The notes under the pieces are model-generated. The model was not told the origin of the DNA. It was given only the letters and a program-made list of their open reading frames with translations, and searched no databases. From positions 5,613 to 69,612 of the forward strand of contig JAKQHR010000070.1 in NCBI GenBank assembly GCA_029557905.1: a stretch of DNA of 64,000 nucleotides. The letters run 5' to 3'. The DNA is from Verrucomicrobiota bacterium (lineage in GTDB: Bacteria > Verrucomicrobiota > Kiritimatiellia > JAKQHR01). Below are positions 2,279 through 59,837 of the stretch, one piece after another. Each line of letters opens with the position of its first letter. The stretch's first letter is position 1. Position numbers and translations under genes: made by a program.

Positions 2279-4345
2279 TCAGAACTGGAAACCGGCCAGG
2301 ATCGGATCATGGTCGCTTTGTCCGCGCCGGGGATATTTTTCGCTGCCGGCAAAGTCGCTGTTGATGTGCACGGCGTTCACGTGCTTCAGCTTTTTGTGCA
2401 GGCTTTCCGTCACGAAGAGATGATCCAGCGTCTGGGCCTGTCCCTTGAAGACATAACTATAGGCATTCTCCGGCCGGGTTCTGAGCATTTCGTCATACAG
2501 GTTGACCATATCGGCCGCGTAGAGCCCGCCCAGCTGATCCGTCGGCAGCATCGGATCAGGCTCGTCCGGCCGGGGGAATGTGTTCAAGTCACCGCCCACT
2601 GCAGCCAGAACCTTTTTGTCATCTTTGCGCAGAGCGCGAACCAGATCGGCGCTGAATTGCGCCTGATTCTGGCGCTCGGGCACATAGTTCTGCGGCTGGC
2701 TCTTGAAGTGATTGTTCAGCAGATAAATGCGGCGGGCCTGCTCCCCGGCGCCGAAATCGAATGCGGCCATCTGCGGTCCGCGCTCATGCACCACGCCCAG
2801 GATGTCATGCAGAAGATTGAATGCCTTGGGATTTCCAGCCCGACCGCAGTAGGTCATGGTCCGCCCCGCAGACGGCACACACGGCATCACGCCCATCACG
2901 GGATGATCTTCGCTAATCTCCGCGAGCGCGACCCGATCGGGCCGATAAAGGAAGGCCGTGATGATTCCCCGGTCGTCGGCGGCGGCGCGATCGCTGACGG
3001 GTTCATAGGCCGGTCCGCCCAGCCTGCTGATTTCCAGCGCCAGTTCCTGCAGCACGTCGAGTTTCCCGTCGCGGTTGTTGATGTCCCCGACGACCAGTTT
3101 CCCCTCCTCCACCGCGCCGATATCCTGATCTTCCACCTCCTGCAGCATCAGAATGTCGGGCGCCTGAAGATCTTCAATGATTTGACCGGCCAGTCCGCTC
3201 AGCCTGGCCTTGTAGGCATCTTTGGAGGCGGGAACATAGTCATACAGTTTGAGGCCGGAGTAGCCCTGGAATTTACCGTCCGCATCCAGAATGGGCAGCG
3301 CATCCTTTCGGTCAAAATAGTCGCGGTCATCAAAGGGATCGTCACGGTGGTCATAGAGATTTTCAACATTGAAAGTCGCGATCCGCAGCACACTTTCATC
3401 TCCCGCATCAGCATCCGACCGGTTGGCGGAAGGATCTGTGCCGACCTCAAACACAGGCAGGCTGTCCACCTGCACCATGTACTGGCCCATGAAGCGCGCC
3501 ACCGCGCCCATCACCGGCTCTTTAAGAACTTCAAAGGTGCAGGTTTCGGGAAACAGCGGCATGGGGTCGCCGTCGGCACGATCGAGACCCAGCGGCCCGA
3601 GCCCGATGAGATAGCCGTTCTGGTTGTCGAAGATTTCCTCCCGGTCGTCCAGCGGGTGCGGATCGCGGAACGCGCGGCGGGCATAGTTGTTTTCACGGCG
3701 GAGCAGCGGATGCGAAGGATGGATCAGATAAACCATGGATCCCATGCTGTCGCGGTGCGCGCCGGACACCACCGCGCCCGCGGGAACTTTGCAGCGCATG
3801 CCTTCATGCCTGCGCCAGTAGATTTCCGCCTCGCCGGCGTCATCCGGGGGATTGGCCACAAAAGCCTTCAGTTCTGAATCAATGTTGAGCCTGCTCCGCA
3901 TCAGCTTCCTGAACTCGGCCTGCTGCAGCACGGTCTGGCCCGCGCTGGTTCCCATCACCCCTTTCAGGAGGACGTCATCGCCGACATGCGGACGATAAAT
4001 GCCGCCGGACGAGGTGCGCAGAAATCCGTTTGTATGCATATCCACATAAAGACCGTCGGACGTGGACGGATCGCGGTCAGCCGCATCGGCCGGATTCTGG
4101 ATCACAAAACCGTAATAAGAGGGTGTGCTCTTTGAGCTGAACACCAGGACCTGATGGACAATGCCCCGCACAGAAACCGCTTCGCCGGCCGGCGGCGTGG
4201 TTCCGCTCTCCATGCGGTGATGAATGTAACCGGCACTTTCGGTGCCCAGCCCTGCGCATCCGGCCAGAAGCATGGCTGCCAGAGGAATTGCGCATACCGC
4301 GGTTAGGGCTGCATTTGCTTTTTTATATGTCATGCGCATCCTCAT
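2279..4345 (-). CDS. Secreted lipoprotein, endonuclease/exonuclease/phosphatase (EEP) family nuclease-like
   Basis: Lipoprotein signal (AMLLAGCAG). EEP-type region IATFNVENLYD ... ILMLQEVED ... SDHDPILAGF. 688 aa. Confidence 0.5.
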   Translation of the reverse strand: MRMRMTYKKANAALTAVCAIPLAAMLLAGCAGLGTESAGYIHHRMESGTTPPAGEAVSVRGIVHQVLVFSSKSTPSYYGFVIQNPADAADRDPSTSDGLYVDMHTNGFLRTSSGGIYRPHVGDDVLLKGVMGTSAGQTVLQQAEFRKLMRSRLNIDSELKAFVANPPDDAGEAEIYWRRHEGMRCKVPAGAVVSGAHRDSMGSMVYLIHPSHPLLRRENNYARRAFRDPHPLDDREEIFDNQNGYLIGLGPLGLDRADGDPMPLFPETCTFEVLKEPVMGAVARFMGQYMVQVDSLPVFEVGTDPSANRSDADAGDESVLRIATFNVENLYDHRDDPFDDRDYFDRKDALPILDADGKFQGYSGLKLYDYVPASKDAYKARLSGLAGQIIEDLQAPDILMLQEVEDQDIGAVEEGKLVVGDINNRDGKLDVLQELALEISRLGGPAYEPVSDRAAADDRGIITAFLYRPDRVALAEISEDHPVMGVMPCVPSAGRTMTYCGRAGNPKAFNLLHDILGVVHERGPQMAAFDFGAGEQARRIYLLNNHFKSQPQNYVPERQNQAQFSADLVRALRKDDKKVLAAVGGDLNTFPRPDEPDPMLPTDQLGGLYAADMVNLYDEMLRTRPENAYSYVFKGQAQTLDHLFVTESLHKKLKHVNAVHINSDFAGSEKYPRRGQSDHDPILAGFQF

Positions 4346-4348
4346 TTC

Positions 4349-4969
4349 TCAGTTAAAAAAGTCCGCAAACCATGTGGCGGCCCGGTCCTCCGCAGACTGC
4401 ATGAACCGCATCTTACGCCTGCCGCAGATTTTTACAAGGCCATCCGCATCCATATCGGGCCAGTTGATCCGGCACCGCTCCAGAAGAATCTGAAAGACAT
4501 GCCCGCAGTAAAGCGCATCCTCCGCGGCCCGGTGGAACCGGCCGCAGGGCACCTGAAACACGCGCACCAGCGTGCCAAGCTGATAGTTTGGAAGTCCGGG
4601 CCACAGCTTCCGGCTCAGCGTCAGAGTGTCCAGCACCAGGCCCGTCGGAGCCGCGCAGGCCAGTCTCCGCACGGCCGCGTTGATGAATTTGAAGTCGAAT
4701 CGTGCATTGTGCGCCACCAGCGGGAGATCTCCGCAGAACTCCGCGAAACGCGGCAGCACTTCTCCAATCTGCGGACTGCTGCTCACCATCTCGTCCGTGA
4801 TCCCGTGTATTCTGGTCGCCCCTCGAGGAATGGGCCGGCCCGGATCAATCAGCTCGCTGAAAGATTCCCCCGGGATGCCGTCGCTGAACCGCACCGCGCC
4901 TATTTCAATGACGGCATCGCGGTGCGGAGATATCCCGGTTGTTTCGGTGTCGAATGCGACGAAATCCAT
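4349..4969 (-). CDS. DnaQ-like DEDDh 3'-5' exonuclease (DNA pol III epsilon family)
   Basis: Exo I motif FVAFDTETTG, Exo II VAHNARFDFKF, Exo III HRAAEDALYCGHV. Overlaps the upstream MazG-like gene by 1 nt. Confidence 0.75.
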   Translation of the reverse strand: MDFVAFDTETTGISPHRDAVIEIGAVRFSDGIPGESFSELIDPGRPIPRGATRIHGITDEMVSSSPQIGEVLPRFAEFCGDLPLVAHNARFDFKFINAAVRRLACAAPTGLVLDTLTLSRKLWPGLPNYQLGTLVRVFQVPCGRFHRAAEDALYCGHVFQILLERCRINWPDMDADGLVKICGRRKMRFMQSAEDRAATWFADFFN

Positions 4970-5319
4970 TATTCCACGCTCAGGTATTCCGTGTATTTCA
5001 GCGCCTTGCCCCGCACTTTGTCCGCCGGGTACTTTGCGCGGTTCTTTACCAGCTTCTGGCGGGCGGCTTCAATCGGATCAATGCCCATCTGATCGGCCAG
5101 GTGGGCCAGAAGGATCTGCACATCGCCGATCTCGTCCATGATCACGTTTTTTTTCTTTTCAGGCAGATTGCGGCTCTGCTCCCCCGTCAGCCACAGAAAA
5201 TGCTCCATCACTTCGGCCACCTCCACCGAAAGGGCCATGATGAGATTACGGGGCGAGTGATACTGTTCCCAGTCGCGCTCCTGCGCGAACTGCTTGATGT
5301 CTCTGATCAGCGCTTCCAT
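4969..5319 (-). CDS. MazG-like nucleotide pyrophosphohydrolase (small, single-domain)
   Basis: 116 aa with EVAEVMEHF ... DEIGDVQILL-type MazG motifs. Translationally coupled to the downstream exonuclease gene. Confidence 0.6.
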   Translation of the reverse strand: MEALIRDIKQFAQERDWEQYHSPRNLIMALSVEVAEVMEHFLWLTGEQSRNLPEKKKNVIMDEIGDVQILLAHLADQMGIDPIEAARQKLVKNRAKYPADKVRGKALKYTEYLSVE

Positions 5320-5366
5320 AGTTGATTCCTTTTTTTACCGGCGCATCATGAACGGAATGGAACACC

Positions 5367-5798
5367 GTGACAATAATGTTGTTTAAATATATGGCATCAC
5401 CTAGTCTTGGACTGATGAAATTTACAGCCCTTGCTGGCGGTCTGATGATCATGCTGGCCTCCGGTTGCGCCACACGGGGTCCCCGGAGCATACTCCCGCC
5501 GCCGCTGATCACCTATGACGGCCAGGGAAGGATTCTGCGTCAGGTGCAGTATAATCCCGACCACAGCGTGAACACCGTTAAAGCGTATCAGTATCCTGAC
5601 GGCGGGGTGACGCTTGAGACCGTCACTGTCTATGACAGCACCAACGGCTGGACCGTGACTGAAACCTACAACATGACGGACAGCGCCGTCGGGCTCAAAA
5701 ACGTCAAACAGTACGATGCCGGCGGCAACCTGCTCAGCGACCGGAATGCTCTCGTCAATCCCGGCAGCCGTTCCGTCAGAATCAACAATAGCCCGTGA
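5367..5798 (+). CDS. Small secreted lipoprotein, paralog A (unknown function)
   Basis: Signal peptide plus lipobox (MLASGCA). True start may be the ATG at 5415 (MKFTALAGG). Shares motifs with the ORF at 6009-6407 (YDGQGRILRQV..., GWTVTE..., NPGSRSVRI). Confidence 0.5.
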   Translation: MTIMLFKYMASPSLGLMKFTALAGGLMIMLASGCATRGPRSILPPPLITYDGQGRILRQVQYNPDHSVNTVKAYQYPDGGVTLETVTVYDSTNGWTVTETYNMTDSAVGLKNVKQYDAGGNLLSDRNALVNPGSRSVRINNSP

Positions 5799-6008
5799 AG
5801 CCTTGTTTCGCGGCGGGGGTGTAGGGATAGGCTCTGTCCCGTCCATTTCTGAACGCGCCCCCGGCGGGCTTCTCACGATAAATCCGGGATTTCTGCGCTC
5901 CGCGCATTATTCGGAAAGTTGATGTATATTTAGTGCTCGGACAGAGAGCGTGCAAGATGTGACGCGGGTCGCAATGAGCAGACCATCGTCATATCGGGAG
6001 GCGCTTTC

Positions 6009-6454: not shown

Positions 6455-7522
6455 ATGAATCTAGGCATCATTGGACTGCCCCAGACGGGCAAAAAAACCG
6501 TTTTTGAGCTGCTGACCGGCATCCACGCGCAGAAGGCTGTCACGAAGGACGGCATCGCCTATGCCATGGCAGCCGTGCGCGACCCGCGCGTGGATAAACT
6601 TTCGGCCATGTACAAGCCCAAGCGCACGCGCTATGCGGAGTTCGAGATGGCGCTGCCTCCCGACATCCAGCCCGATGCCAGCCGCAATGCCGGCTGGATC
6701 GAGCCGCTCCGGCGCGTGGATGCCCTGCTCCATGTCGTCCGCGCCTTCGAAGCCCCGGAGGTTTTCCATATCAAAGGGGATGTGAACCCGGCGCGCGATT
6801 ATGATCTGGTCGAGACCGAACTGCTGCTGGCCGATCTGGGAACCGTCGAGACGCGCCTGACCCGCATGGCGAAGGAAATCAAGAAGAAGGGCGACACCAC
6901 CAGCGACCGCGAGGAGGCCGTTCTGAAACGGTGCCAGCAGCACCTCGAAACCGGCGCGCCGCTGCTGACCATGCAGTTCTCCGATGAGGAACTTAAACTT
7001 GTTGCCAGCCTGAAATTTCTAACTCTGAAGCCCGTCATCACCGTCTTCAATACCGGTGAAAACATTTCCAAAGCGCGCGAAGCATTGAAGGACACCGAAA
7101 CGCGGATCAAAAAGCATGGTGCGGAGCCCGTGTATCTGAGCGCATCCATTGAGAAGGAAATGCTTGAGCTTTCAGAAGAAGAACGCGCGATGTTCATGGC
7201 TGATCTTGGGATTGAAGAGCCGGCCGCTCACCGCCTGTCGCGCGCGGTGTACGCAAGTCTGGGCCTGATCAGTTTCTTCACCGTCGGACCGGATGAAGTC
7301 AAGGCGTGGCCGCTCCGCGCGGGCACAAGAGCCCCGCAGGCGGCCGGGAAAATTCACACCGATCTTGAGCGCGGATTCATTCGGGCCGTGACCATCTCCT
7401 ATGATCACCTCATCGAGGCCGGCTCCGAACACACCGCCAAAGAGAAGAATTACTATGTCCTGAACGGCAAGGATTATGTCGTCAAGGACGGCGACGTCAT
7501 CGAAATCAGATTCAATGTTTAG
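6455..7522 (+). CDS. ychF: Ribosome-binding ATPase YchF (Obg family GTPase)
   Basis: G1 motif GLPQTGKKT, 355 aa, conserved C-terminal TGS-like end KDYVVKDGDVIEIRFNV. Confidence 0.85.
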   Translation: MNLGIIGLPQTGKKTVFELLTGIHAQKAVTKDGIAYAMAAVRDPRVDKLSAMYKPKRTRYAEFEMALPPDIQPDASRNAGWIEPLRRVDALLHVVRAFEAPEVFHIKGDVNPARDYDLVETELLLADLGTVETRLTRMAKEIKKKGDTTSDREEAVLKRCQQHLETGAPLLTMQFSDEELKLVASLKFLTLKPVITVFNTGENISKAREALKDTETRIKKHGAEPVYLSASIEKEMLELSEEERAMFMADLGIEEPAAHRLSRAVYASLGLISFFTVGPDEVKAWPLRAGTRAPQAAGKIHTDLERGFIRAVTISYDHLIEAGSEHTAKEKNYYVLNGKDYVVKDGDVIEIRFNV

Positions 7523-7527
7523 TTATT

Positions 7528-7860
7528 ATGAAAAAAGCGCTGTGTTTTATCCTGCTGTCACTGTTTACCGGCTGTTCCTCCCTGATCACACAGTTTGGAA
7601 CGGATAAAGACGATATGTATGAATGCGGCCCGCCGGTAAAGGTCAAACAGATCTACAGCGGAACTGCGTGCAACATTCTTCATGCGAAAGCCGTCATCAA
7701 CGGGACCACAGGAATGGATGACCCGGGCCGGGCCATTGAAGTGTGCATATTCCCCTTCTACTATGTATTTGAATTCCCGCTTTCACTGGTCATGGACACC
7801 GTCCTGCTTCCCATGACGATTTGCAAACAGATTATCTACGGAGACTTGACCATAGACTGA
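7528..7860 (+). CDS. Small lipoprotein (unknown)
   Basis: Signal peptide with lipobox LFTGCSS. 110 aa. Confidence 0.4.
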   Translation: MKKALCFILLSLFTGCSSLITQFGTDKDDMYECGPPVKVKQIYSGTACNILHAKAVINGTTGMDDPGRAIEVCIFPFYYVFEFPLSLVMDTVLLPMTICKQIIYGDLTID

Positions 7861-7976
7861 TGAAGTGGATCGCCTATATTCTGGCCGTCTTCGTTGTCTG
7901 GCTGCACGTGTATTCCTATGTGCACACACATTCAGATAAGGTGACTTCTGAATCAACCATGTTTGAAGCCTTTTAG
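7860..7976 (+). CDS. Putative 38-aa single-TM His-rich micropeptide (MKWIAYILAVFVVWLHVYSYVHTHSDKVTSESTMFEAF)
   Basis: Not in the ORF track (under 60 aa). Its ATG overlaps the TGA of the upstream lipoprotein gene (ctgATGAag), suggesting translational coupling. Hydrophobic core followed by HxYxYxHxH. Confidence 0.25.
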   Translation: MKWIAYILAVFVVWLHVYSYVHTHSDKVTSESTMFEAF

Positions 7977-8008
7977 GGGGATATCATTGATTTGGCTGGA
8001 GGACTTCG

Positions 8009-9388
8009 ATGTCACGAAAATACCGATTAATGCATAAACTGCATGCAGCACTCGCATGTTTTCTCACACTGGCTTGCTGCGCAACGGCACAAACACAGGA
8101 TCTGCAGGCTGAACTCATGGCCGCCGCTCAAAAAGGGGAACTCGCGAAGATTGAAGAACTGATGGATGCGGGCGCTGATCCTCACGCCTGCAGCAAATAC
8201 AGTGAAAGTCCGTTCGGCAGAGCGGCACGGGCCGGTCATACTGAGGCCGCACACCTGATGCTGGATAAAGGCGGAGTCACTCAGAATCCGGAGAAACAGA
8301 ATTGCCCCACTCCTCTCATGATGGCGGCCATGACGGACTGCACGAACCTGATCGCACGACTTCTTGAAGCGGGGGCTGATGTCAACGAAAAGCGCATAGG
8401 CGGGCGGACGCCTCTCATTCTGGCCGCGCAGAATGGACACAATGAAGCCGTGCGCATGCTGCTCGATAACGGCGCCGACATGAACGTGACGGTGGGGCTG
8501 GATAACATGACGGTTGTGCAATGGGCCATATTCACGGGGAAAAAGGACACGGTGGAACTTCTGCTGGATCGAGGGGCGGATCCCGGCCCCACTCCGCTGA
8601 TGGGCCCAGCCTGCCAGGGGAATCTGGAAATGATGGAAGTACTGGTTTCCCGAGGAGCGGATGTCAATGCACGACGTTTGGCGGCGACTTCAGTGAGGAA
8701 TAATCAGGAATGGGAAGCCGCCCTTCATGCGGCCGCAACCTGCTGCCGGACAGACTCCATGGCATGGCTTCTGGAGCACGGGGCACCGGTGGATGATCCG
8801 GGCGCGTATGGCAAAACGCCTCTCATGTCTGCGATCACAGACCGCTGTCACGACGGGGCACTGCTTCTGATTGAGAAAGGAGCAAACGTCAATGCCGTTG
8901 ACCGGCTCAACCTGACGCCATTGATTTATGCTGCAAGGGGAGGTGATCCAAATGTCATCCAAATGCTTCTCAAACACGGGGCAGATGTAAACTTCAAGGG
9001 GAAATCCGGCATGACCGCCCTGGACGCAGCCTTGGAATGGGAACACGATCACATTGCAGTGCTGTTGATCAAATCCGGCGCAGATGTGACGGCCGACACG
9101 CTGCTGCGCGCGGCGCAGGAACGCAGCGCGGCATGGGATAATGGTGAACTCATGCAGAGCATTCTGGATCGGGGTGTTGATGTCAACAGCACAAGCGATC
9201 TGGGAGAAACCGCGCTTATGGCTGCAGTCCAGAAAGGCCTAACAGATAATGTTCAATGGCTTCTTTCTCGGGGCGCGGACGCGACACTTAAAGACAACAG
9301 CGGGAAAACAGCCGAGGATTATACAAAGGATCCAAAGATCCTTGAAGCACTGCGCCGGTCGCGGGAAGAAAATGTTTCCACAGAATGA
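8009..9388 (+). CDS. Secreted ankyrin-repeat protein (about 12 ANK repeats)
   Basis: Signal peptide. Repeated TPLMxAAxxGHxxxVxLLLxxGADVN ankyrin consensus throughout 459 aa. Confidence 0.8.
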   Translation: MSRKYRLMHKLHAALACFLTLACCATAQTQDLQAELMAAAQKGELAKIEELMDAGADPHACSKYSESPFGRAARAGHTEAAHLMLDKGGVTQNPEKQNCPTPLMMAAMTDCTNLIARLLEAGADVNEKRIGGRTPLILAAQNGHNEAVRMLLDNGADMNVTVGLDNMTVVQWAIFTGKKDTVELLLDRGADPGPTPLMGPACQGNLEMMEVLVSRGADVNARRLAATSVRNNQEWEAALHAAATCCRTDSMAWLLEHGAPVDDPGAYGKTPLMSAITDRCHDGALLLIEKGANVNAVDRLNLTPLIYAARGGDPNVIQMLLKHGADVNFKGKSGMTALDAALEWEHDHIAVLLIKSGADVTADTLLRAAQERSAAWDNGELMQSILDRGVDVNSTSDLGETALMAAVQKGLTDNVQWLLSRGADATLKDNSGKTAEDYTKDPKILEALRRSREENVSTE

Positions 9389-11952: not shown

Positions 11953-12065
11953 GAAAAATCAATGAAAAAAGGCTATTTTTCAGCATTTTAGGCCGTTTTG
12001 GGCACTTTTTGGTCGTTTTGTGGCATTTTTTCGTTGTTTTTTTAGACTTTTCGGCTGTTTTCTTC
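11953..12065. promoter_or_regulatory. Phased A/T-tract element (about 10-bp periodic T4-7 tracts): predicted intrinsically curved DNA upstream of arsR1
   Basis: ggctattttt/cagcatttta/ggccgttttg/ggcacttttt/ggtcgttttg/tggcatttttt/cgttgttttttt/agacttttc/ggctgtttt. 9-10 T-tracts at helical phasing. Similar element at 52590-52700. Followed by TTGACA at about 12088. Confidence 0.5.
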
Positions 12066-15669: not shown

Positions 15670-16053
15670 ATGGCTAAATATAGAAATATGAATCTTCGCG
15701 GGGCGGAGGCTGTTTTTCAGGCCCTGTCGGACAAGGGCCGCCTTCGCATCCTGTGCGCGCTCCGCCACGGGGAACTGTGCATCTGCTGGATTGTCGAAAT
15801 GCTGGGCTTCGCCCCCTCCACCGTATCCAGGCACCTTTCGGTTCTCCGCAGCGCCGGACTGATCCAAACCCGCAAGCAGGAGCGCTGGGTTTACTGCTCG
15901 CTGCCCTCCATGCCCGTTTCTCCAATCATTGGAAAAATACTCCCGCAGATATTCCAATCACTGGAAAATTCACCGGAAGTCCGGGCGGATGCGCGGCTGA
16001 TTAAACGAATCCTTAAAAAAGAGGCATCGAAGTGCAAAATCCGGAAAAAATGA
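15670..16053 (+). CDS. arsR: ArsR-family As(III)-responsive repressor (second copy)
   Basis: HGELCICWIVEMLG (ELCVC-type site) and STVSRHLSVLRSAGLI HTH. Start at the internal ATG (MAKYRN). Confidence 0.75.
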   Translation: MAKYRNMNLRGAEAVFQALSDKGRLRILCALRHGELCICWIVEMLGFAPSTVSRHLSVLRSAGLIQTRKQERWVYCSLPSMPVSPIIGKILPQIFQSLENSPEVRADARLIKRILKKEASKCKIRKK

Positions 16054-16478
16054 AAATCCTGTTTCTCTGCACCGGAAACTCCTGCCGGAGCCAGATGGCC
16101 GAGGGCTGGGCTCGGCATCTGAAGGGCGATGTGATTGAGGCGTATTCCGCGGGCATTGAAACGCACGGGCTGAATCCGCTGGCCGTGAAGGTCATGAATG
16201 AGGCCGGAGTGGATATTGCCGGACACCACTCAAAGAACCTTTCTGATCTGGCCGACGTACAATTTGATTATGTGATCACCGTCTGCGACAACGCCCACGA
16301 GTCCTGCCCGATCTTTCCGGGAAAAACAAAAGTGGTGCATGCCGGATTCGACGATCCGCCGAGGCTGGCGAAGGACGCAATATCTGAGGCGGAAGCCCTC
16401 GCCCATTACCGGCGCGTGCGGGATGAAATCAGAGCGTTTGTCGAATCACTGCCGGAGAAACTGGAAATAATGGAATGA
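16050..16478 (+). CDS. arsC: Arsenate reductase, LMW-PTP/thioredoxin-coupled type
   Basis: P-loop MKILFLCTGNSCRSQMAEG (CX5R) and CDNAHESCP with downstream Cys. Alternative start at 16032. Confidence 0.8.
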   Translation: MKILFLCTGNSCRSQMAEGWARHLKGDVIEAYSAGIETHGLNPLAVKVMNEAGVDIAGHHSKNLSDLADVQFDYVITVCDNAHESCPIFPGKTKVVHAGFDDPPRLAKDAISEAEALAHYRRVRDEIRAFVESLPEKLEIME

Positions 16479-16557
16479 TGGAATATTGGAATAATGGAGA
16501 AGCCATGAAATCAGCCGGAAGCAGTTTATATCCTCGTCTTCCCACCATTCCAATATT
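16479..16557. promoter_or_regulatory. 14-bp inverted repeat (TGGAATATTGGAAT ... ATTCCAATATTCCA) between arsC and arsM: hairpin/attenuator or operator
   Basis: Perfect 14-nt arms at about 16489-16502 and about 16539-16552, separated by about 36 nt. The left flank shares the 17-mer AATAATGGAATGATGG with 13813-13840. Confidence 0.45.
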
Positions 16558-16574
16558 CCAACCCGACAGGAGCC

Positions 16575-19750: not shown

Positions 19751-22402
19751 ATGAAAAGCAGTACTGTTCTTCTCTTTTCGGCATGTTTTCTGTACTCGGC
19801 GGTTTCAGCATTCGGGGGGCCTTCACTTCCAGTCACCAAGCCGCCCGTCGCGGATCAAAGTATACTGACCGGGCCTCCGGTTGATCCAGCGGCCACGAAC
19901 GGGCAGTGGTTCCTCGATTATGCCAGCGGTGTTGAACATTATCGCACACATGAGTTCCACGACAACCTGTTCGGCGGCCTGATGGGGGTCAATGCCATCA
20001 CGGGATTTGTAAGCAGCATTACCTATCTGGCCGGACCCGGTTCGCCGATCACGGCATTCAGCATTCAGGCAACGGTCTGGAATGACAACACCCCCGTCGG
20101 GGAATATATGGGCGGCACGAACAGCCATGGCGAATCACTTCTGTATATAGAAGCTCCTTACACGGACACACTGTACAACGTGAAGCTGACGGCCTCGTTT
20201 GCGGTCACAGACACGACCAACCTGCCTTCTCCGTCTCCCATCGGGCCGTATCCGCCGTATCTGGATCAGCAGCCGTACATTGAAGCCACGAATGAAGACC
20301 AGGCCGCATGGTACTGCTGGTCACCGGAAAGTGTTGAGTCTCCGACCGGCGGTTATTTCGTGCCGACCTGGGACTTTGGCGACATCCTCCCCGGACAGTC
20401 CTCGACCCGGCAGCTTGACTTTATTGTTCCCGCCACGATGTCCCCGATAGATTTCCGCTACAGCGTGCTTGTGCAGTCGCAGGCCACGCAGGCGGATATT
20501 CTGCTGAACCGGAGCACCTCGCTGAAAATCAGCACCTGGATGGATACCATATACTTCGATACTGGGGCCCCTTATCCGGAAGAACCCTTCCGCGGGAGCG
20601 ATGTGTCGGTGTTTCACAGCATCCCGGAAGAGGAGGAAGAGCCGGAACAGGATTTCGGCGATGCGCCGGATCCCAACTATCCGACACTGCTGGTTAATGA
20701 CGGCGCGCGGCACATCATCGTCCCGGGGATACAAATGGGATCCGCCATTGACGCTGAAGCCGATGGACAGCAGTCTCCCAATGCGGACGGCGATGACAAT
20801 GCGGGTATTGCCGACGAAGACGGGGTCAGCTTCATGGGGCTGAATTATGCTGGACAGATCAGCACCGTGGCGGTGAGCTGCTCCACATCAGGCTGGCTCT
20901 ACATCTGGGTGGACTTTGACGCCAACGGCAGCTGGGGTGATTTCGGCGAACATCAGAACCAGTGGGCCACACAGGGTCTGAATTATGCTCAAATCGCCTT
21001 CCCCACCAACGCCGCCATCGGAAACACCTGTGCCCGCTTCCGTTTCACCACCGACACCAATTCATTGAACAACACCGGCCAGGCCCGCGACGGAGAAGTG
21101 GAAGACTATCTCATCACGATTAAAAAAGAGGAAGAAGAGCAGCTCGATTTCGGCGACGCGATGGACAATGCGCTGATGCCTGTCTATCCGACGCTCGCAG
21201 CGAACGCCGGCGCGTGTCACACCATTGTGCCGGGGGTGATGCTCGGAACCGCTGTGGACGGGGAGCCGGACGGGCAGCCAGCGCCAAACGCCGACGGAGA
21301 CGACAACAACCCGCCTCCTCCGGGGGGCATTGATGACGAGGACGGCGTGACGCTGCCGTCGGTTTTTGTTGCTGGTGCCAGTCCGGTCATTTCCGTTGTG
21401 GCTTCCACCGGAGGTTTTCTTGACGCGTGGATTGACTGGAACTGCGACAACGACTGGGCCGATCCGGGGGAGCAAGTGTTCACAAGCACACCGCTCAGCG
21501 CAGGACTCAACGTCCTGACCCTGCTTGTGCCGCAGCCCCCCGTGCTGGCTGCCGGCGGCCCGCATTCCCGATGGCGGTTCACCACGAACGCGACCGCCTC
21601 GGTTTCGTACACGGGATGGATTGACCATGGCGAAGTGGAAGACTATGAAGTTCGTCTCGAAGTCCTCGATTTCGGCGACGCGCCGGACCCGTCCTATCCC
21701 ACTCTTCTCGCAAGCGACGGGGCGCGCCATCGGGTTCCTTCGGTCTATTACCTGGGGGCGACGGCGCCCGACAGCGATCCGGACGGACTCCCCGCCCCCA
21801 GCGCAGACGGGGATGATCTGTCCAATCTGCCGGACGAAGACGGGGTTTCTCTCGGGTCGGCCCTGTTTCGCGGGCAGACAACCATGTCCACTGTTTCCGC
21901 GTCGATTGGCGGCCTGCTGGATGCATGGATGGACTTCAATGCGGACGGAGACTGGTCCGACGCCGGTGAAAACATAGCGGCATCCCATCCGCTGTCCGCG
22001 GGCGCAAATCCCTTCAACATCACCGTCCCCGCATCCGCTGCGCTGGGCCCGACCTATGCGCGTTTCCGCTTCAGCAGCGGCGGCGGCCTCAGTTATACCG
22101 GGCTGGCTTCAGACGGAGAGGTGGAGGATTACATGTTTACCATCCACCAGCAGTCACCAGACACCAACACCTTCGCCGTCACCAGCATGGTGCTTTCGGC
22201 GGGCAGCGTTTTCACCATCCAATGGGCGGGCGAAAGCAACGTGACCTATGAAACACAGACGCTGGGCGATCTGCTGACGACGGCCGCGCCGCCCTGGACG
22301 GCATGGGGGCCCCGCATCACCGGCGGACCCTATACGCTGACGTTCACCAATATTCTGGAAACGACCCGGTTCTTCCGCGTCGTGGCGCCCTTCGCCCAGT
22401 AG
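19751..22402 (+). CDS. Large secreted protein with 3-4 repeated GEVED-type modules
   Basis: Signal peptide MKSSTVLLFSACFLYSAVSAFG. Module repeated: DFGDAPDPxYPTL..DGARH ... DGxPxxNADGDD ... DEDGV ... RFRF(T/S) ... GEVEDY. Found at about aa 330, 490 and 660. Confidence 0.6.
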   Translation: MKSSTVLLFSACFLYSAVSAFGGPSLPVTKPPVADQSILTGPPVDPAATNGQWFLDYASGVEHYRTHEFHDNLFGGLMGVNAITGFVSSITYLAGPGSPITAFSIQATVWNDNTPVGEYMGGTNSHGESLLYIEAPYTDTLYNVKLTASFAVTDTTNLPSPSPIGPYPPYLDQQPYIEATNEDQAAWYCWSPESVESPTGGYFVPTWDFGDILPGQSSTRQLDFIVPATMSPIDFRYSVLVQSQATQADILLNRSTSLKISTWMDTIYFDTGAPYPEEPFRGSDVSVFHSIPEEEEEPEQDFGDAPDPNYPTLLVNDGARHIIVPGIQMGSAIDAEADGQQSPNADGDDNAGIADEDGVSFMGLNYAGQISTVAVSCSTSGWLYIWVDFDANGSWGDFGEHQNQWATQGLNYAQIAFPTNAAIGNTCARFRFTTDTNSLNNTGQARDGEVEDYLITIKKEEEEQLDFGDAMDNALMPVYPTLAANAGACHTIVPGVMLGTAVDGEPDGQPAPNADGDDNNPPPPGGIDDEDGVTLPSVFVAGASPVISVVASTGGFLDAWIDWNCDNDWADPGEQVFTSTPLSAGLNVLTLLVPQPPVLAAGGPHSRWRFTTNATASVSYTGWIDHGEVEDYEVRLEVLDFGDAPDPSYPTLLASDGARHRVPSVYYLGATAPDSDPDGLPAPSADGDDLSNLPDEDGVSLGSALFRGQTTMSTVSASIGGLLDAWMDFNADGDWSDAGENIAASHPLSAGANPFNITVPASAALGPTYARFRFSSGGGLSYTGLASDGEVEDYMFTIHQQSPDTNTFAVTSMVLSAGSVFTIQWAGESNVTYETQTLGDLLTTAAPPWTAWGPRITGGPYTLTFTNILETTRFFRVVAPFAQ

Positions 22403-22463
22403 GCTTAATCAAGCTTCCTGCTCGACTTGCGCGGCCGCTTCGCTTAATTTGGCGGCATGGTAT

Positions 22464-22556
22464 TTCAAAAGTTCCAATCATTGGAAGTTTCTGCGCGAAA
22501 AGTTCCAATGATTGGAAGTTTTTTTGCAAAAAGTTCCAGCCATTGGAAGTTTTGAA
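22464..22556. repeat. Array of 3 near-palindromic units (AAAGTTCCAAT-SA-TTGGAAGTTTTT), 31-bp period, ending 13 nt before the glycogen synthase ATG
   Basis: GTTCC cores at 22471, 22502 and 22533. Inverted repeat TTCCAAT/ATTGGAA around each core. Second, similar array at 43941-44030. Confidence 0.8.
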
Positions 22557-22568
22557 AGGGGTCGAGAC

Positions 22569-24395
22569 ATGAGTGCGAAAGCGCCACACGACAAGAATTC
22601 GTCATCGGTTGCGGAAAATCTGCGGCCGCTTCTTTTTGAGGCGGCATGGGAAGTCTGCCAGAAAATCGGGGGCATTTATACCGTGATTCGAAGCAAGGTC
22701 CCGGAGATCATGTCCACCTGGGGGCAGCGTTACTGCCTGCTGGGCCCCTATAATCCCGAGGTATCGCCGCTGGAATTCGAGGAAACAGAACTGGACGGCC
22801 CTCTCGCCCCGGTGATCGCCAAAATGCGCGAAAAGGGGTTCGTGGTGCATACCGGCTACTGGCTGGTGACCGGCCGGCCGCGAGTGATCCTGTTTGAATA
22901 CAAGCAGTTTGAATCGCGCCTGCCGGAAATCCGCAAGATGATGCAGGACCATCACGGCATTCCCGTGGCGCCGGAGGACAGCCTCACCAGCGAGGTTGCG
23001 CTGTTCGGCTGGGTGCTGACGGAGTTCTACACGATGCTGAACGACCTCAAGTCGCTCAAGAATCCTGTTATTGCGCATTTCCATGAGTGGATGTCGGCCA
23101 CGGCCATTCCCGAGCTGCGCCGCCGCGGCAACCGCGCAGGCATTGTTTTCACCACGCACGCGACGATGCTCGGACGCTACCTTGCGATGAACAACCCTGA
23201 GTTCTACACCCACATGACCGGCATCGACTGGCAGGCGCAGTCCCATCATTTCAACATCATGGGCCCTGTCATGATCGAGCGTGCCGCCGCGCACGGGGCG
23301 CATGTCTTCACGACGGTCAGCAAGGTGACCGGCCGCGAGTGCGAGGCGCTGCTGGACCGCGCGCCGGACGTGCTGCTCCCGAACGGCCTGAACCTGCGCC
23401 GCTTCGTGGCGATGCACGAATTCCAGAACCTTCACCGCAGCTACAAGGAGAAGATCCACCAGTTCGTTATGGCGCACTTCTTCCCCAGCTACACGTTCGA
23501 TCTCGACAACACGCTGTATTTCTTCACCGCCGGCCGCTACGAATACCGCAACAAGGGCTTCGACATGACCCTCGAGGCGATGGCCCGCCTGAATTACCGC
23601 ATCAAGCTCAGCGGCCTCAACCGCACCGTCGTGTTTTTCCTGATCACGCGGCAGGCCTACAAGTCGGCCAGCGCCGAAGTGTTCCGCCGCCAGGCGATGC
23701 TCGAGGAAATGCACGGCGCGTGCGAATCCATCAAGGATTCGCTGGGAAGCAGGCTTCTGATGGCGGCGGCAAAGGGACATATTCCCGAATACGAAACACT
23801 GGTGGACGAGACATCCCGCATGAGGCTGCGCCGCATCATGCACGCGTGGCCGTCCAGCGTCCTGCCCCCGTTTGTGACCCATGACCTTGTGAACGATGAC
23901 GAGGTGCTGCAGAAAATCCGGGCCTGCAAACTGATTAACCGGCCCGATGATCCCGTGAAGGTGATCTACTACCCTGAATTTGTTTCCACCAGCGACGGCC
24001 TCCTCGGCATTGAATACGACAACTTCGTGCGCGGCTGCCATCTGGGAATATTCCCGAGCTATTATGAGCCGTGGGGTTATACCCCGCTCGAGTGCGTGGC
24101 CTGCGGTGTGCCCGCCGTCACCAGCGACCTGAGCGGCTTTGGAAGCTATCTCAACCGCTGCATGCCGGACTGGGCCGAGCGCGGGCTTTATGTGGCCCCG
24201 CGCCGCGATAAAACCGAAGATGAATCCGTCAACGAGCTTACGGGCTGGCTCTACAATTTCGCACAGATGGACCGCCGTGAACGCATATCTCTCCGCAACA
24301 AGGTGGAGCGCTCCTCGGATGAGTTCGACTGGCACAATCTGGGCAGGAACTACACCGAGGCCTATGAAACAGTCTGCCGGCGAGCGGGGTTTTGA
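22569..24395 (+). CDS. Glycogen synthase, eukaryotic-type (GT3 family)
   Basis: N-terminus LFEAAWEVCQKIGGIYTVIRSK (GT3 hallmark). Length about 610 aa. C-terminal EPWGYTPLEC. The six-frame start at 22512 lies inside the repeat array, so the start was moved to the ATG at 22569. Confidence 0.65.
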   Translation: MSAKAPHDKNSSSVAENLRPLLFEAAWEVCQKIGGIYTVIRSKVPEIMSTWGQRYCLLGPYNPEVSPLEFEETELDGPLAPVIAKMREKGFVVHTGYWLVTGRPRVILFEYKQFESRLPEIRKMMQDHHGIPVAPEDSLTSEVALFGWVLTEFYTMLNDLKSLKNPVIAHFHEWMSATAIPELRRRGNRAGIVFTTHATMLGRYLAMNNPEFYTHMTGIDWQAQSHHFNIMGPVMIERAAAHGAHVFTTVSKVTGRECEALLDRAPDVLLPNGLNLRRFVAMHEFQNLHRSYKEKIHQFVMAHFFPSYTFDLDNTLYFFTAGRYEYRNKGFDMTLEAMARLNYRIKLSGLNRTVVFFLITRQAYKSASAEVFRRQAMLEEMHGACESIKDSLGSRLLMAAAKGHIPEYETLVDETSRMRLRRIMHAWPSSVLPPFVTHDLVNDDEVLQKIRACKLINRPDDPVKVIYYPEFVSTSDGLLGIEYDNFVRGCHLGIFPSYYEPWGYTPLECVACGVPAVTSDLSGFGSYLNRCMPDWAERGLYVAPRRDKTEDESVNELTGWLYNFAQMDRRERISLRNKVERSSDEFDWHNLGRNYTEAYETVCRRAGF

Positions 24396-28335: not shown

Positions 28336-28360
28336 AAAGACCCGCTTCCGCGGGCCTTCA
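28336..28360 (-). terminator. Rho-independent terminator downstream of tRNA-Met
   Basis: Minus-strand GGCCCGCGGAAGCGGGTC hairpin followed by TTTTCATTTT. Confidence 0.55.
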
Positions 28361-42147: not shown

Positions 42148-43112
42148 GTGGCGGTGCCGAGCTTGCCCACTACAACACCCGCGGCAAAATTGGCCAGTTC
42201 GGCGGCTTCGCGATGAGTAGCGCCTGCCGCCAGTGCCAGCACTGTGGCGGCAACCACAGTATCGCCTGCGCCGCTCACGTCGAACACTTCCTGTGCGCGC
42301 GTGGGAATATGAACGGTTCTGCCCTTTTTCGGCATCATCAGCATTCCGAGACTCCCCAGCGTGATCACAAGAAATTCCGGCGACCAGGACTTGAGCAGGC
42401 GCTGGCCGGCCTGCAGCAGGTTGGCGTCCTTCAGCGGACTTCCGGATACGGGGGTTTCCTTCATGCCCGCGCCCATAAACGCCTCGCGGTGATTCGGCAT
42501 GGCCACGGTGATGCCGTGGACATTCAGGTCGCAGTTGTCTTTTGGATCAAAACCGACGGGAATGCCCTTTTTCCCCGCCGCCTCCAGCACCACATCAACC
42601 ACGGCCTGCCGGACCACGCCTTTGCCATAGTCCTCGATAATGACGCCCGTGGAGCGACGGATTTCTCTGCGGAGCTTTTCCGCAAACAAGTCGAAATCAG
42701 CATTTTTGTAGTCGGGTTCAGCGTCCCAGTCCACGCGGCACACCTGCTGATGTTCGGCAATGATGCGGGTTTTGACCGTTGTACAGCTGCCGGGCACGGC
42801 GAGCACGCCGTCCACTCCAACGCGGCCTTTCGAAAGCACCCCTCGCAGTTCCGCGGCCGCCGGGTCGTCGCCTGCAAACCCGCTCACGGCGCTGCGGCCC
42901 CCCAGCGACTGAATATTCCAGGCCACGTTGCTGGCGCCGCCCGGCATATTGCTTTCGCTCACGACGCGCACCACGGGAACCGGGGCTTCCGGGGAGATTC
43001 GACTCACCGATCCATAAATGAAGCGGTCGAGCATCAAATCCCCGACCACAAGAATCCGCTGTTTTCCAAATGAAGCAATCAGCTTCCTGGCCCTACTGAC
43101 TGAGAGCGACAT
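42102..43112 (-). CDS. rfaE: PfkB-family sugar kinase, RfaE/HldE domain-I-like (heptose 7-phosphate kinase)
   Basis: ILVVGDLMLDRF ... DVSGAGDTVVA PfkB motifs. Adjacent to kdsB. Confidence 0.6.
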   Translation of the reverse strand: MSLSVSRARKLIASFGKQRILVVGDLMLDRFIYGSVSRISPEAPVPVVRVVSESNMPGGASNVAWNIQSLGGRSAVSGFAGDDPAAAELRGVLSKGRVGVDGVLAVPGSCTTVKTRIIAEHQQVCRVDWDAEPDYKNADFDLFAEKLRREIRRSTGVIIEDYGKGVVRQAVVDVVLEAAGKKGIPVGFDPKDNCDLNVHGITVAMPNHREAFMGAGMKETPVSGSPLKDANLLQAGQRLLKSWSPEFLVITLGSLGMLMMPKKGRTVHIPTRAQEVFDVSGAGDTVVAATVLALAAGATHREAAELANFAAGVVVGKLGTATCSASELLKSVRAGT

Positions 43113-43926
43113 CCTGCGCCTCCTCTTCCTCACGTTCTTTCGCATCCGGGATTCGTATAATCATGTTCTCGCCCGAGCTTCGCACCTCGGCCAGCAGCAG
43201 ATGAACGCTGGCCACGGGCACTTTTGCCTGCATCTTCGTCATCAGGCGGCTGTCATCATCCGATATCCACATCCACATCCGGCCTTTTCGGACAAACAGC
43301 CCATCGAACTTGGCGACCGGCTCAAGCCGGATGCTGCGGATGCGGCTGTCATCGGCGATTTTCACGTCTTCAATCTTCTGGACATCCAGCTGCAGTTCGT
43401 AAAGCTTTTCGTCCGAAATCACCTCAAACCGGCTTGTGCTTCCCGGGACGAAATCCAGCGCGCGGGAGAAATACATGAATGAAATCACATCGCGGCTGTC
43501 CGGGCCGATCTCAAAAACTTTTTTACTGTCGCGGCCCGCCCGCTGCATGACGGCCTGCCCTTTTTCGTGATCGTAGTCGGTGACCTCATTGGCGTGGTAC
43601 CGGCCTTCGTTGACCTGCTTGGAGTACCGCACCGGGAGAAAGGTTTGCGGATCAATGAAGCACTCATGGATGTCATTCACCGGGTAAATTTTGCTGAGCA
43701 CTTTTCCGGTTACCACGCGGAAACGAACGCTGAGAAGCCGGCGGCCGTCCAATTCGGCCCATTCCGTGCGCACCCGGGCCTCGCCGACGGGGATCTTTCC
43801 CCAGTAAATGTTGTAGACCAGGTACTCTCCCAGCGGGAAATTGAATTCGACGGCCGGAACGCCCTGCGGCAGCATCAGAACCAGACCGCCCATAAGCAGG
43901 AACCACCTTTTCCAAAAAGAAGTCAT
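43093..43926 (-). CDS. DUF3108-family secreted protein
   Basis: Signal peptide MTSFWKRWFLLMGGLVLMLP. The six-frame start at 44001 runs into the repeat array, so the internal ATG at 43926 is preferred. Confidence 0.45.
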   Translation of the reverse strand: MTSFWKRWFLLMGGLVLMLPQGVPAVEFNFPLGEYLVYNIYWGKIPVGEARVRTEWAELDGRRLLSVRFRVVTGKVLSKIYPVNDIHECFIDPQTFLPVRYSKQVNEGRYHANEVTDYDHEKGQAVMQRAGRDSKKVFEIGPDSRDVISFMYFSRALDFVPGSTSRFEVISDEKLYELQLDVQKIEDVKIADDSRIRSIRLEPVAKFDGLFVRKGRMWMWISDDDSRLMTKMQAKVPVASVHLLLAEVRSSGENMIIRIPDAKEREEEEAQDVALSQ

Positions 43927-43940
43927 GCGGCAGAATCTAG

Positions 43941-44030
43941 CGTTTTTTCCAATGATTGGAAGTTTTTTCGGGAAAAGTTCCAATGATTGGAAGTTTTTCA
44001 AGCGAAAGTTCCAATGGTTGGAACTTTTTA
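43941..44030. repeat. Second array of 3 near-palindromic TTCCAAT-N2-ATTGGAA units, 31-bp period, 15-18 nt upstream of the DUF3108/rfaE/kdsB operon start
   Basis: TTCC cores at 43947, 43978 and 44009. Unit is about 85-90% identical to the array at 22464-22556. Confidence 0.8.
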
Positions 44031-45170
44031 CGGCCGGACCAGCCGGCCCATGAAGAGAATCGCGCCGGTCTGCCGGTCACGAATGATGTAAATGAACGGA
44101 TGGTCGGCGCGAAAGACCGGCTGGCGTCTTGCTGCGGTTTTGACCATGACAACCGCCGTGGCCGCGGCCGCTTCGGTGCCCTCCTCATTCACCTCGACCA
44201 GCGCGGAATGGATCACATCCGAGATGAAGAGTTCCGGCTCGCCGGTGATGCCGCTGAAATCGGCCCGGGCTGAGAACGCGATACCCATGCCCATTTCAGA
44301 GAGGACTTCCTTCAGGCCGGCGTTCTGCTGCGCGGTGAAGCGAGGGATGCTGACGTCCACTTGTGTTTTTTTCAGGTTGTCAATGCACTGCTTCAGCAAA
44401 GTCTCGTCCAGCTTCTGTTCCAGATCGCTGATCCCGTCCCGTTCGCGCGGGAGCAGAAGCAGCATGGCGACGCGCTCGCCGATGTACGGCATTTCCAGCG
44501 CCTGGAAACTGGCGGCATCGGCATAAAGAAACTCGCCGTTCTGCTTCATCATCGGGACTTTCACCGGCGCTGATCCTGAATGAAAAAGTTCTTCGCGCGT
44601 GTCAGTCTCAGCAAAAGCCTTCGCCCATTTCCCCTTGAACCAGATTGTGTTGGTGAGAACCAGCCGCGCAAGAGCATTGAGCGCCCCGGCCGGGAGAAGC
44701 TCCCTGATCCGGCCGGCCGTGGCCAGGCCGATCCAGCTGTTGATTGTCTGCCGGGCCGCTTCGGCATCCGCCTTGAAGTCCACGGGCTGGATGTCGGCAT
44801 CGAACACCTGCTGCAGCGCATTTTCATAGACCTCCCGAATATAGAAACCCTCCTGCGGCCACATGCGGTTGGATATCTGCATCCGCGGGCCGCCGAACGA
44901 TGATATTTCGCGCAGAGACCTGATCCGGGCTGTCATCTGCGCATCGTACTCCGCGGGATCGGCCGGGACACCGAGGGTGGCGGCCATGACCGAGGCGGTT
45001 TCGGCGCGCGCACCCTTGAAGGCCATGCCCAGGGCGGTGCTAATACTGTGGGGCGAGCACGCCACATTTCCCTCCGTTGCGGCGAGCCGGTGATAGAGCT
45101 TGAGCGCGAAAGCGCTATCGTCCCCTCGGACAGAGATGGCAAACAAAAGAAGTAGAATCAGTTTTTTCAT
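44028..45170 (-). CDS. Serpin (serine protease inhibitor), secreted
   Basis: Signal peptide. Reactive-centre-loop hinge GTEAAAATAVV and C-terminal FRADHPFIYIIRD. Confidence 0.85.
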   Translation of the reverse strand: MKKLILLLLFAISVRGDDSAFALKLYHRLAATEGNVACSPHSISTALGMAFKGARAETASVMAATLGVPADPAEYDAQMTARIRSLREISSFGGPRMQISNRMWPQEGFYIREVYENALQQVFDADIQPVDFKADAEAARQTINSWIGLATAGRIRELLPAGALNALARLVLTNTIWFKGKWAKAFAETDTREELFHSGSAPVKVPMMKQNGEFLYADAASFQALEMPYIGERVAMLLLLPRERDGISDLEQKLDETLLKQCIDNLKKTQVDVSIPRFTAQQNAGLKEVLSEMGMGIAFSARADFSGITGEPELFISDVIHSALVEVNEEGTEAAAATAVVMVKTAARRQPVFRADHPFIYIIRDRQTGAILFMGRLVRP

Positions 45171-45177
45171 AATCACC

Positions 45178-45498
45178 TCAATAATAAACGGCCAGCCAGA
45201 TGGTATGCTGAGACTCATCGGTGCGCGCCACACGGTGCCGGCAGCGGGCAGGAATGTTAACATAGTCCCCCGGCCGGAGTTCGACCGGTTCAGTCCGTCC
45301 TTCTACTTCCAGCGTGGCGGAGCCCTGAATCAGGATCACCCATTCAGGCTGGTCCTGGTCGTACCAGAAATCCTCCGGGGAGTTGTGTCCCTCGGAAACA
45401 ATGCGCTCGATCCGCACGGGTCCGGAATGCACAAGCGTGTTGATGATCTCCATTTCCAGGCCGGAAGTGATGTTGTCAAAGATGCTGCGCCGGTTCAT
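45178..45498 (-). CDS. Cupin-domain protein
   Basis: Cupin_2-like GSATLEVEG...LRPGDYVNIPARCRHRV. About 106 aa from the internal ATG. Confidence 0.5.
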   Translation of the reverse strand: MNRRSIFDNITSGLEMEIINTLVHSGPVRIERIVSEGHNSPEDFWYDQDQPEWVILIQGSATLEVEGRTEPVELRPGDYVNIPARCRHRVARTDESQHTIWLAVYY

Positions 45499-59807: not shown

Positions 59808-59837
59808 AATAAACCTCTCAACATCTTTCCTGCGCGG

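Follow-up and report, generated by a model that had tools for sequence, protein, structure and literature searches.

What does a tandem array of palindromes do in the gap between a gene for a GEVED-domain protein and a gene for glycogen synthase? An earlier note on this DNA had taken the array for a cooperative operator, bound by a dimeric regulator of carbohydrate-storage and envelope genes, or alternatively for a small dispersed repeat that had landed in 5' untranslated regions. Much of the description that came with these proposals could be reproduced in the window, i.e., the whole stretch of 64,000 nucleotides that was analyzed. The three units are there at exactly 31-bp spacing, the array ends 13 nt before the start codon, the downstream gene does encode a glycogen synthase, and a second array with the same period is found 21 kb away. 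The coordinates of these and other features are collected in Table 1.

Array 1 is 93 bp long (3 × 31 bp). Its first core lies 69 nt behind the stop codon of the GEVED gene, and 20 nt separate its last core from the start codon of the glycogen synthase gene. The units as read in the region 22300–22700 are AAAAGTTCCAATCATTGGAAGTTTC, AAAAGTTCCAATGATTGGAAGTTTTT, and AAAAGTTCCAGCCATTGGAAGTTTTG, which corresponds to the layout AAAAG-TTCCAAT-S-ATTGGAA-GTTTT, with a non-complementary G/G position in the flanks. The palindrome is 15 bp long and can be written as TTCCAAT-N1-ATTGGAA or equally as a 6-3-6 motif, TTCCAA-NNN-TTGGAA. The two-base centre proposed earlier has to be replaced by a single base, as the N2 pattern has no match in the window even when two mismatches are allowed.

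Table 1. Positions of the arrays, their cores and the neighboring features in the window (strand "." for symmetric elements).
Feature	Position	Strand	Description
Array 1	22464..22556	.	Three 25–26-bp units, 31-bp period, in the co-directional GEVED/glycogen synthase gap
Array 1, unit 1 core	22472..22486	.	TTCCAATCATTGGAA; perfect
Array 1, unit 2 core	22503..22517	.	TTCCAATGATTGGAA; perfect, invariant in three species
Array 1, unit 3 core	22534..22548	.	TTCCAGCCATTGGAA; two mismatches, arms kept, central bases differ between species
Conserved upstream block	22421..22458	+	CTCGACTTGCGCGGC (22421–22435) invariant in three species
Shine-Dalgarno-like stretch	22554..22561	+	GAAAGGGG; 7 nt before the ATG, right behind the last unit, as read from the sequence
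GEVED-domain protein gene	19751..22402	+	Upstream of array 1
Glycogen synthase gene	22569..24395	+	GT3 type, 608 aa, PF05693 (E = 1e-193); downstream of array 1
Array 2	43941..44030	.	Cores at 43947–43961, 43978–43992, and 44009–44023; 31-bp period
-10-like hexamer	43934..43939	-	TAGATT, 7 nt upstream of the DUF3108 ATG, in a nearly invariant leader
DUF3108 gene	43093..43926	-	277 aa, signal-peptide-like N-terminus; downstream of array 2
Serpin gene	44028..45263	-	Upstream of array 2
Degenerate core pair	15920..15966	.	CTCCAATCATTGGAA (15920) and TTCCAATCACTGGAA (15952), 32 bp apart

The arrays in the window are beyond chance. Perfect 15-mers occur four times, against 0.00 in 100 dinucleotide shuffles, and sites that match in the arms alone occur eight times against 0.01 expected. 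The sequence of array 1 is the same in seven assemblies, and its host lineage is an uncultured Kiritimatiellia-type bacterium present in many metagenomes. The degenerate core pair lies inside the 3' part of an ArsR-family open reading frame that overlaps the start of the next gene, and its cores translate as SPIIGK and FQSLEN.

Both neighbors of array 1 have features of their own. The glycogen synthase is of the eukaryote-like GT3 type (PF05693) rather than the usual bacterial GT5 type (GlgA). It has about 8000 homologs below E = 1e-50, and the sources of the top matches include Kiritimatiellia, Planctomycetota/Phycisphaerae, and Sedimentisphaerales. The GEVED protein is a secreted protein of 883 aa whose three GEVED domains are encoded by internal repeats of roughly 500 bp.

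The Shine-Dalgarno-like stretch behind the last unit has a counterpart in two relatives, GAGAGAGG. The block CTCGACTTGCGCGGC upstream of array 1 may be a promoter or another signal of the glycogen synthase gene, to judge from its sequence conservation. A sigma-70 consensus scan of 22421..22458 called no match. If the block is a promoter, array 1 would lie within the 5' leader and be transcribed. Promoters inside the array itself were also considered. A sigma-70 promoter formed by two units (TTGGAA-N16/17-TCCAAT) would be without the A at position 2 of the -10 element, and the scan calls nothing there; the sigma-54 (TGG-N9-TGC, unit 2) and ECF (GGAACTT) look-alikes are restricted to single units and inconsistent.

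Array 2 occupies the entire 101-bp gap between the serpin stop codon (44028) and the DUF3108 start codon (43926) on the minus strand, with the serpin stop codon only 4 nt from the first core. Like array 1, it lies between co-directional genes. If TAGATT acted as a -10 element, the last unit of array 2 would cover the -35 and spacer region of a leaderless promoter.

Both arrays of the window have been retained at orthologous positions in relatives with 77–90% protein identity. Among the homologs of the glycogen synthase, the two closest share 90% and 89% identity, after which the identity drops to 59% or less. The loci of the two closest, L032 (JBFXGK01) and L121, keep the order GEVED gene, array, synthase gene, with three units at 31 bp. 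Array 1 of the window and that of L032 have units that are identical except for 2 of about 75 positions, and spacers that have largely diverged. Three relatives with a DUF3108 identity of 77–85% have retained array 2. In these, too, the array directly follows the stop codon, its last core lies at a distance of 20 nt from the start codon, and the TAGATT leader is nearly invariant.

Further away the arrays are not retained at a given place. Two loci with 56%-identity synthase homologs, one of which belongs to a named Kiritimatiellae MAG with 45% GC, have other neighbors and no array, and the locus of a DUF3108 relative at 50% identity has none either. For PurD, a relative at 85% carries a pair of TTCCAA-N3-CTGGAA units 32 bp apart behind the PurD stop codon, with a different downstream gene, and no array was found in 6 kb around a relative at 77%. 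The arrays are thus stable within a genus and are gained and lost over longer times.

Copies elsewhere were searched for with one unit plus its T-flank as the query and one genome per species. The unit is present in at least 114 stretches, with Kiritimatiellia-type MAGs dominating among the matches listed. Arrays of 2–5 units with a strict 31- or 32-bp period were found in at least 15 Kiritimatiellia-type genomes. Nearly all of the multi-unit matches listed come from Kiritimatiellia or from Verrucomicrobiota/Lentisphaeria MAGs, and the unrelated low-GC genomes among the matches listed have single sites only, in numbers close to the chance estimate (∼17). One of the array-rich genomes, CAIVKH01, is assigned to Kiritimatiellia by PurD homology, being closest to named Kiritimatiellia. 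It contributed 158 arrays in 67 loci (489 kb), among them 118 pairs, 26 triplets, and 4 quadruplets. Its neighboring units are 32 bp apart in 160 of 182 intervals and 33 bp apart in 19, and in JBFXGK01, the nearest sequenced relative of the window, all 18 intervals are 31 bp. The IMG/VR collection yields just one viral contig with a phased array (L125, IMGVR_UViG_3300035698_006241, positions 3429–3505; three units, 31 bp), and phage carriage of the arrays was dismissed on this count. That contig may derive from a phage of Kiritimatiellia, or it may be a piece of host DNA that was binned wrongly.

The density of arrays varies more than tenfold between genomes. The CAIVKH01 loci have about one array per 3 kb, which is an upper bound because these loci were fetched for matching the motif. 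The window has three in 64 kb. Of two 21-kb stretches that were not selected by motif, one (L132) contains two pairs and the other (L133) none. The literature searched contains no paper with the 15-mer, the matches to shorter strings being unrelated, and nothing on repeats in Kiritimatiellia. The arrays are an undescribed interspersed family of intergenic palindromes whose geometry is that of a cooperative operator array.

The position of the arrays relative to genes was examined in CAIVKH01 with our own simple codon-model gene caller, of whose calls a sample only was checked against Pfam, so the following fractions are to be read with these calls in mind. Around the glycogen synthase gene, the caller gives the same genes as the database, and in the sampled gaps Pfam confirms real, functionally unrelated genes on both sides. 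By these calls, non-coding DNA makes up 12% of the sequence and contains 293 of 323 cores (91%). Arrays are present in 24 of 26 convergent gaps of at least 60 bp, in 24 of 33 divergent gaps of at least 120 bp, and in 59 of 94 co-directional gaps of at least 120 bp. Occupancy is similar in gaps without the query pattern (10/12 convergent, 17/26 divergent, and 29/64 co-directional). Counted by gap type, 79 arrays are co-directional, 24 convergent, and 22 divergent. As convergent gaps hold no promoter, their occupation excludes a pure promoter or operator role, and the occupation of divergent gaps excludes a pure terminator role.

Within co-directional gaps the arrays lie nearer to the upstream stop codon in 59 of 79 cases and nearer to the start codon in 20 (p = 1e-5); the median separation is about 20 nt from the stop and about 90 nt from the start. 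Of the 14 co-directional arrays in the low-copy lineage, nine start 1–7 nt behind a stop codon. The distances from array to start in this lineage are broad (20–152 nt). The arrays may simply avoid the zone of promoter and leader, which could account for the bias toward stops.

The genes beside the arrays form no functional group. Convergent pairs include Wzy/MurJ, UxaE/oxidoreductase, MntP/beta-CASP, catalase-peroxidase/PMT, and PurD/hydrolase; divergent neighbors include AsnC/IF-2B, FolP, AroE/cytochrome c, LpxR/PL8 lyase, and a coiled-coil protein/aminotransferase; CoaBC, MetH, an M48 peptidase, a cNMP/rhodanese protein, and PurD were found as well. This bears directly on the idea of a gene-specific cooperative operator array that controls a regulon of carbohydrate-storage and envelope genes. 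The low number of arrays in the window lineage would fit such a regulon, as would the two that end 20 nt before start codons and are kept in relatives, and several of the genes downstream of arrays in the nearest relative encode envelope-associated proteins (SH3 twice, OmpA, and DUF3108). Yet the neighbors are unrelated, nearly all convergent gaps are filled, arrays stand right behind stop codons, start distances are broad, and the two 56%-identity glycogen synthase homologs that were examined have no array. We therefore regard a dedicated regulon as very unlikely, and this part of the earlier proposal has to be given up. The earlier note had itself allowed that hundreds of sites without bias toward start codons would speak for a repeat rather than an operator. 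At the level of the family, this is the distribution seen: hundreds of intergenic sites in the related genome and no preference for start codons, the arrays being nearer to stops (59 vs. 20).

Could the arrays then be a repeat that is selfish or domesticated, similar to REP/BIME elements, spread by, e.g., a RAYT-type Y1 transposase and tolerated in non-coding DNA? Any function would in that case be that of an mRNA 3'-end stabilizer or of a site for gyrase or a nucleoid-associated protein. The arrays share with the REP/BIME elements of enterobacteria and pseudomonads that they are short, extragenic, numerous, clustered, variable in copy number, and often close behind stop codons, at the median distance and the 1–7 nt given above. 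Each unit is palindromic, very many copies are present in one genome and few or none in others, and presence at a given gene boundary is not kept beyond the genus. The uneven density between genomes looks like repeat expansion and counts against a protein-bound array, which is the reading we prefer below.

The sequences of the copies point the other way. The cores of 142 CAIVKH01 pairs are 96–100% conserved per position. Box positions 7 and 9 are T and A, and the central base is C or G in all, with A or T in 0 of 142 first units. Outside the cores there is only a weak symmetric consensus in the CAIVKH01 flanks (CGCAAAY-core-RTTTGCG), with no preference in the remainder of the 17-bp spacer; units of the window lineage are flanked by A4-S and S-T4-7. 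The spacers, 16–17 bp long, have unrelated sequences between arrays. In a comparison of 101 strict two-unit arrays, no two share more than 50 of 97 non-core positions, and those shared by the best pair are all core-adjacent. In the distant genomes L013, L104, L105, and L130 the arms TTCCAA/TTGGAA persist and the three central bases vary. Old copies thus keep perfect cores while their surroundings are randomized, which argues for purifying selection and not for decay. Two variant arrays in L130 (2956–3002 and 1573–1620) have TTCCAA-N3-CTGGAA in both units at a 32-bp period and may mark a lineage with an altered half-site preference.

REPs are imperfect palindromes that form hairpins; they alternate in orientation, are joined by conserved linkers, and are tied to RAYT transposases. 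The arrays here are instead phased in direct order at 31/32 bp with unrelated spacers, their stems show no covariation, the core hairpin reaches only about -4 kcal/mol, and divergent gaps are occupied as often as convergent ones. Recent copies are lacking, with spacers and outer flanks unrelated throughout. A tblastn search with the Y1_Tnp protein of L129 found no other homolog in the 1.06 Mb of fetched DNA, which covers fractions of the genomes, and the L129 gene is not flanked by the motif. Overall, we consider an element of this kind unlikely. L129 comes from a Kiritimatiellia genome without arrays; the Y1_Tnp gene (331 aa) has a 99%-identical partial duplicate directly downstream, and a reverse-transcriptase gene is located nearby (4242–5900 and 7429–8598 for these features together).

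Other forms of mobility were rejected. A MITE needs a conserved interior, terminal inverted repeats, and target-site duplications, and the spacers and outer flanks here are unrelated. Recent transposition would leave similar spacers or flanks among arrays, of which there are none. A REPIN-like long hairpin between neighboring units does not fit, as the centres are non-complementary. The alternative in the earlier note, a MITE-like dispersed repeat in 5' untranslated regions, was hence right about a dispersed family; it went wrong in placing the family specifically in 5' untranslated regions and in the likeness to MITEs, given the unrelated spacers and flanks and the stable orthologous sites.

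Near-perfect identity at hundreds of sites is unusual for transcription-factor sites and more typical of amplified repeats or uptake sequences, which counts against the protein-bound reading preferred below. The arrays might consist of motifs resembling DNA uptake sequences (DUS/USS), which would be kept perfect through biased uptake and recombination and have no function at the individual site. Hundreds of identical short sites with unrelated surroundings, a lineage-wide distribution, and A/T-rich helically phased flanks would suit this idea, and such a drive would account for cores this perfect. Known uptake sequences are in many cases located within genes, though, whereas 91% of the cores here are non-coding, and obligate pairs and triplets at a fixed phase would be left unexplained. 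We hold this explanation to be extremely unlikely. The dRS3/NIME elements and the DUS of Neisseria are likewise short, perfectly conserved palindromic or paired motifs repeated at hundreds of intergenic sites across a lineage. The spacers of NIMEs are repeat units of 50–150 bp and DUS have no fixed phase, in contrast to the 16–17 bp and the strict period found here.

A palindrome by itself cannot separate a function at the DNA level from one at the RNA level. On an RNA reading, each unit would form a small hairpin, preceded by an A-tract and followed by a U-tract. The array would then be a series of intrinsic terminators or attenuators that work in both directions, or it would be recognized by an RNA-binding protein; for the glycogen synthase gene, array 1 would serve as a leader attenuator. 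The units of the window lineage do have the form A4-stem-T4-7 and lie right behind stop codons, and with the conserved upstream block as a promoter, transcription would run through the array. The predicted unit hairpins have energies of -6.4 to -10.7 kcal/mol; single units otherwise reach only a weak -4 to -7 kcal/mol, the value of -10.7 being that of the one perfect extension. The whole array folds with z = -5.3, but such a strong fold is expected because repeated palindromes fold trivially.

The stems are nevertheless weak and AT-rich, with only two G-C pairs each, in a genome of 58% GC. Ordinary terminators of this genome are GC-rich, e.g., the one after the tRNA near 28340, and the terminator scan does not call the units. 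The CAIVKH01 units have no following T-run, and divergent gaps are filled (24/33), at odds with terminators placed at 3' ends only. Array 2 lies in an operon-like gap whose downstream gene needs transcription. Rfam gives no match for the arrays in the window, where only one tRNA reaches the gathering threshold.

What is conserved is the sequence and not the pairing. Compensatory changes in the arms were looked for among variant units and none were found. Complementarity between left and right unit flanks is not above independence and is significantly below it at ±1 (z = -3.8), i.e., the flanks do not covary. The centres of neighboring units are complementary in 69 cases and not in 72. The A6>G variant is common and is found on both strands with respect to transcription, which rules out a wobble signature of RNA, and the central base of the sense strand is G in 81 and C in 80 units, so that the units have no polarity relative to the flanking genes. 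Finally, the strict helical period has no rationale in RNA. An RNA element is in our judgment distinctly unlikely.

Among described systems, the closest architecture is that of Lrp/AsnC operator arrays. Ss-LrpB of Sulfolobus solfataricus binds three regularly spaced 15-bp palindromic boxes cooperatively with one dimer each (PMC1802622, PMC2995911). Lrp-family boxes are palindromes of 13–17 bp (PMC2995911) that lie on the same side of the DNA at distances of two or three helical turns, and three dimers wrap ∼100 bp (PMC1802622, PMC2995911). The Ss-LrpB box needs a weak, A+T-rich centre of 5 bp for minor-groove contact and bending (PMC1802622). The present arrays resemble this plan in the 15-bp palindrome with 6-bp arms and in the regular 31/32-bp spacing of three turns, as an analogy. 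They differ in their C:G centre, where Lrp boxes are A+T-rich, and in that Lrp boxes are degenerate and lie in target promoters, whereas the boxes here are near-perfect and number in the hundreds, including in convergent gaps. Lrp/AsnC arrays also usually include the promoter of the regulator itself, and no Lrp-family protein could be tied to the arrays here from the 1.06 Mb of fetched DNA. This DNA contains one AsnC-family gene, which adjoins an array (L015); the adjacency is compatible with chance because array occupancy is high. A homolog probe with this AsnC protein recovered only the query's own gene in the same 1.06 Mb. The genes flanking the longest arrays, which were inspected for autoregulation, include no recurring DNA-binding protein.

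A similar spacing is known from NrdR boxes, which are tandem palindromes about 31–32 bp apart, i.e., three helical turns. These likewise come as tandem boxes, upstream of ribonucleotide reductase genes. Their sequence is different, and they are few per genome and restricted to positions upstream of nrd genes, while the arrays here are genome-wide and blind to gene orientation.

The reading we prefer, tentatively and at somewhat below an even chance, is that a predicted dimeric protein binds the arrays cooperatively on one face of the helix, and that the arrays serve as an intergenic mark throughout the genome, with local operator-like effects near start codons. Perfect cores in randomized surroundings, the strict period, symmetric but independent flanks, and the lack of polarity and covariation together point to a symmetric dimer on double-stranded DNA. 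Each 15-bp box, consisting of the arms TTCCAA/TTGGAA, a 3-bp centre, and A/T-rich flanks, would be read by one predicted dimer. With boxes three helical turns apart, the dimers would come to lie on the same face of the helix, which would favor cooperative binding, and they would probably bend or wrap about 60–150 bp in the way Lrp/AsnC-type oligomers do on operator arrays. What the data show directly is where the arrays lie, how they are phased, that their cores are selectively conserved, that hairpin and RNA signatures are absent, and that the arrays are stable at orthologous places. Protein binding, cooperativity and wrapping are what we infer from the anatomy of the arrays, as is any effect on expression. 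Of the cooperative dimeric operator first proposed for this locus, the anatomy is retained (the palindrome, the independent half-site flanks, the strict 31/32-bp period, and the lack of RNA or hairpin signatures), and its assignment to a set of genes is not.

Genome-wide placement irrespective of gene orientation suggests that the general role of the protein-bound arrays is architectural, as a mark or boundary between transcription units or as a topological or nucleoid site. Since the last box lies so close to the start codons of the glycogen synthase and DUF3108 genes (about 20 nt), occupancy by the predicted protein should affect expression there, acting on initiation in an operator-like manner. 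A more far-reaching version would be that Kiritimatiellia mark the borders of transcription units across the genome by means of a sequence-specific architectural DNA-binding system, in which high-affinity boxes nucleate wrapped particles and the array in front of the glycogen synthase gene has secondarily become an operator. Phased boxes in most inter-operon gaps would then be a counterpart of insulators or boundary elements, or a barrier to the diffusion of supercoils. We think this extended version unlikely.

If a protein does bind, it would be a rare case of a bacterial factor of high specificity with hundreds to thousands of phased sites, located between transcription units and not at promoters, and it would bear on how bacterial chromosomes are partitioned and neighboring operons insulated from each other. 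The 15-mer is in any case a sharp genomic signature for Kiritimatiellia, which are poorly studied and abundant in anaerobic digesters and sediments, and it is a ready-made bait for finding the binding protein. For genome annotation, arrays of this kind should not be read as gene-specific operators.

The window contains some further repetitive features. Runs of 8–10 T-tracts in a 10-bp phase (TTTT-N6 repeats) are found at 11976–12052 and 52602–52697, upstream of an ArsR-family gene (12125) and of nadA (52733), respectively, in both cases in divergent gaps. They look like intrinsically curved DNA upstream of promoters. At 16470–16565, between a gene for an LMW phosphatase/ArsC-like protein and the next gene, there is a GGAAT-rich tandem (GGAATAATGGAATGATGGAATATTGGAATAATGG) and its inverted complement about 50 nt apart, with ATTGGAA/TTCCAAT half-sites facing outward. 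Finally, two adjacent giant open reading frames (about 1525 and at least 1148 aa) occupy 55230–63281 on the minus strand; both have many internal repeats and are coiled-coil-like.
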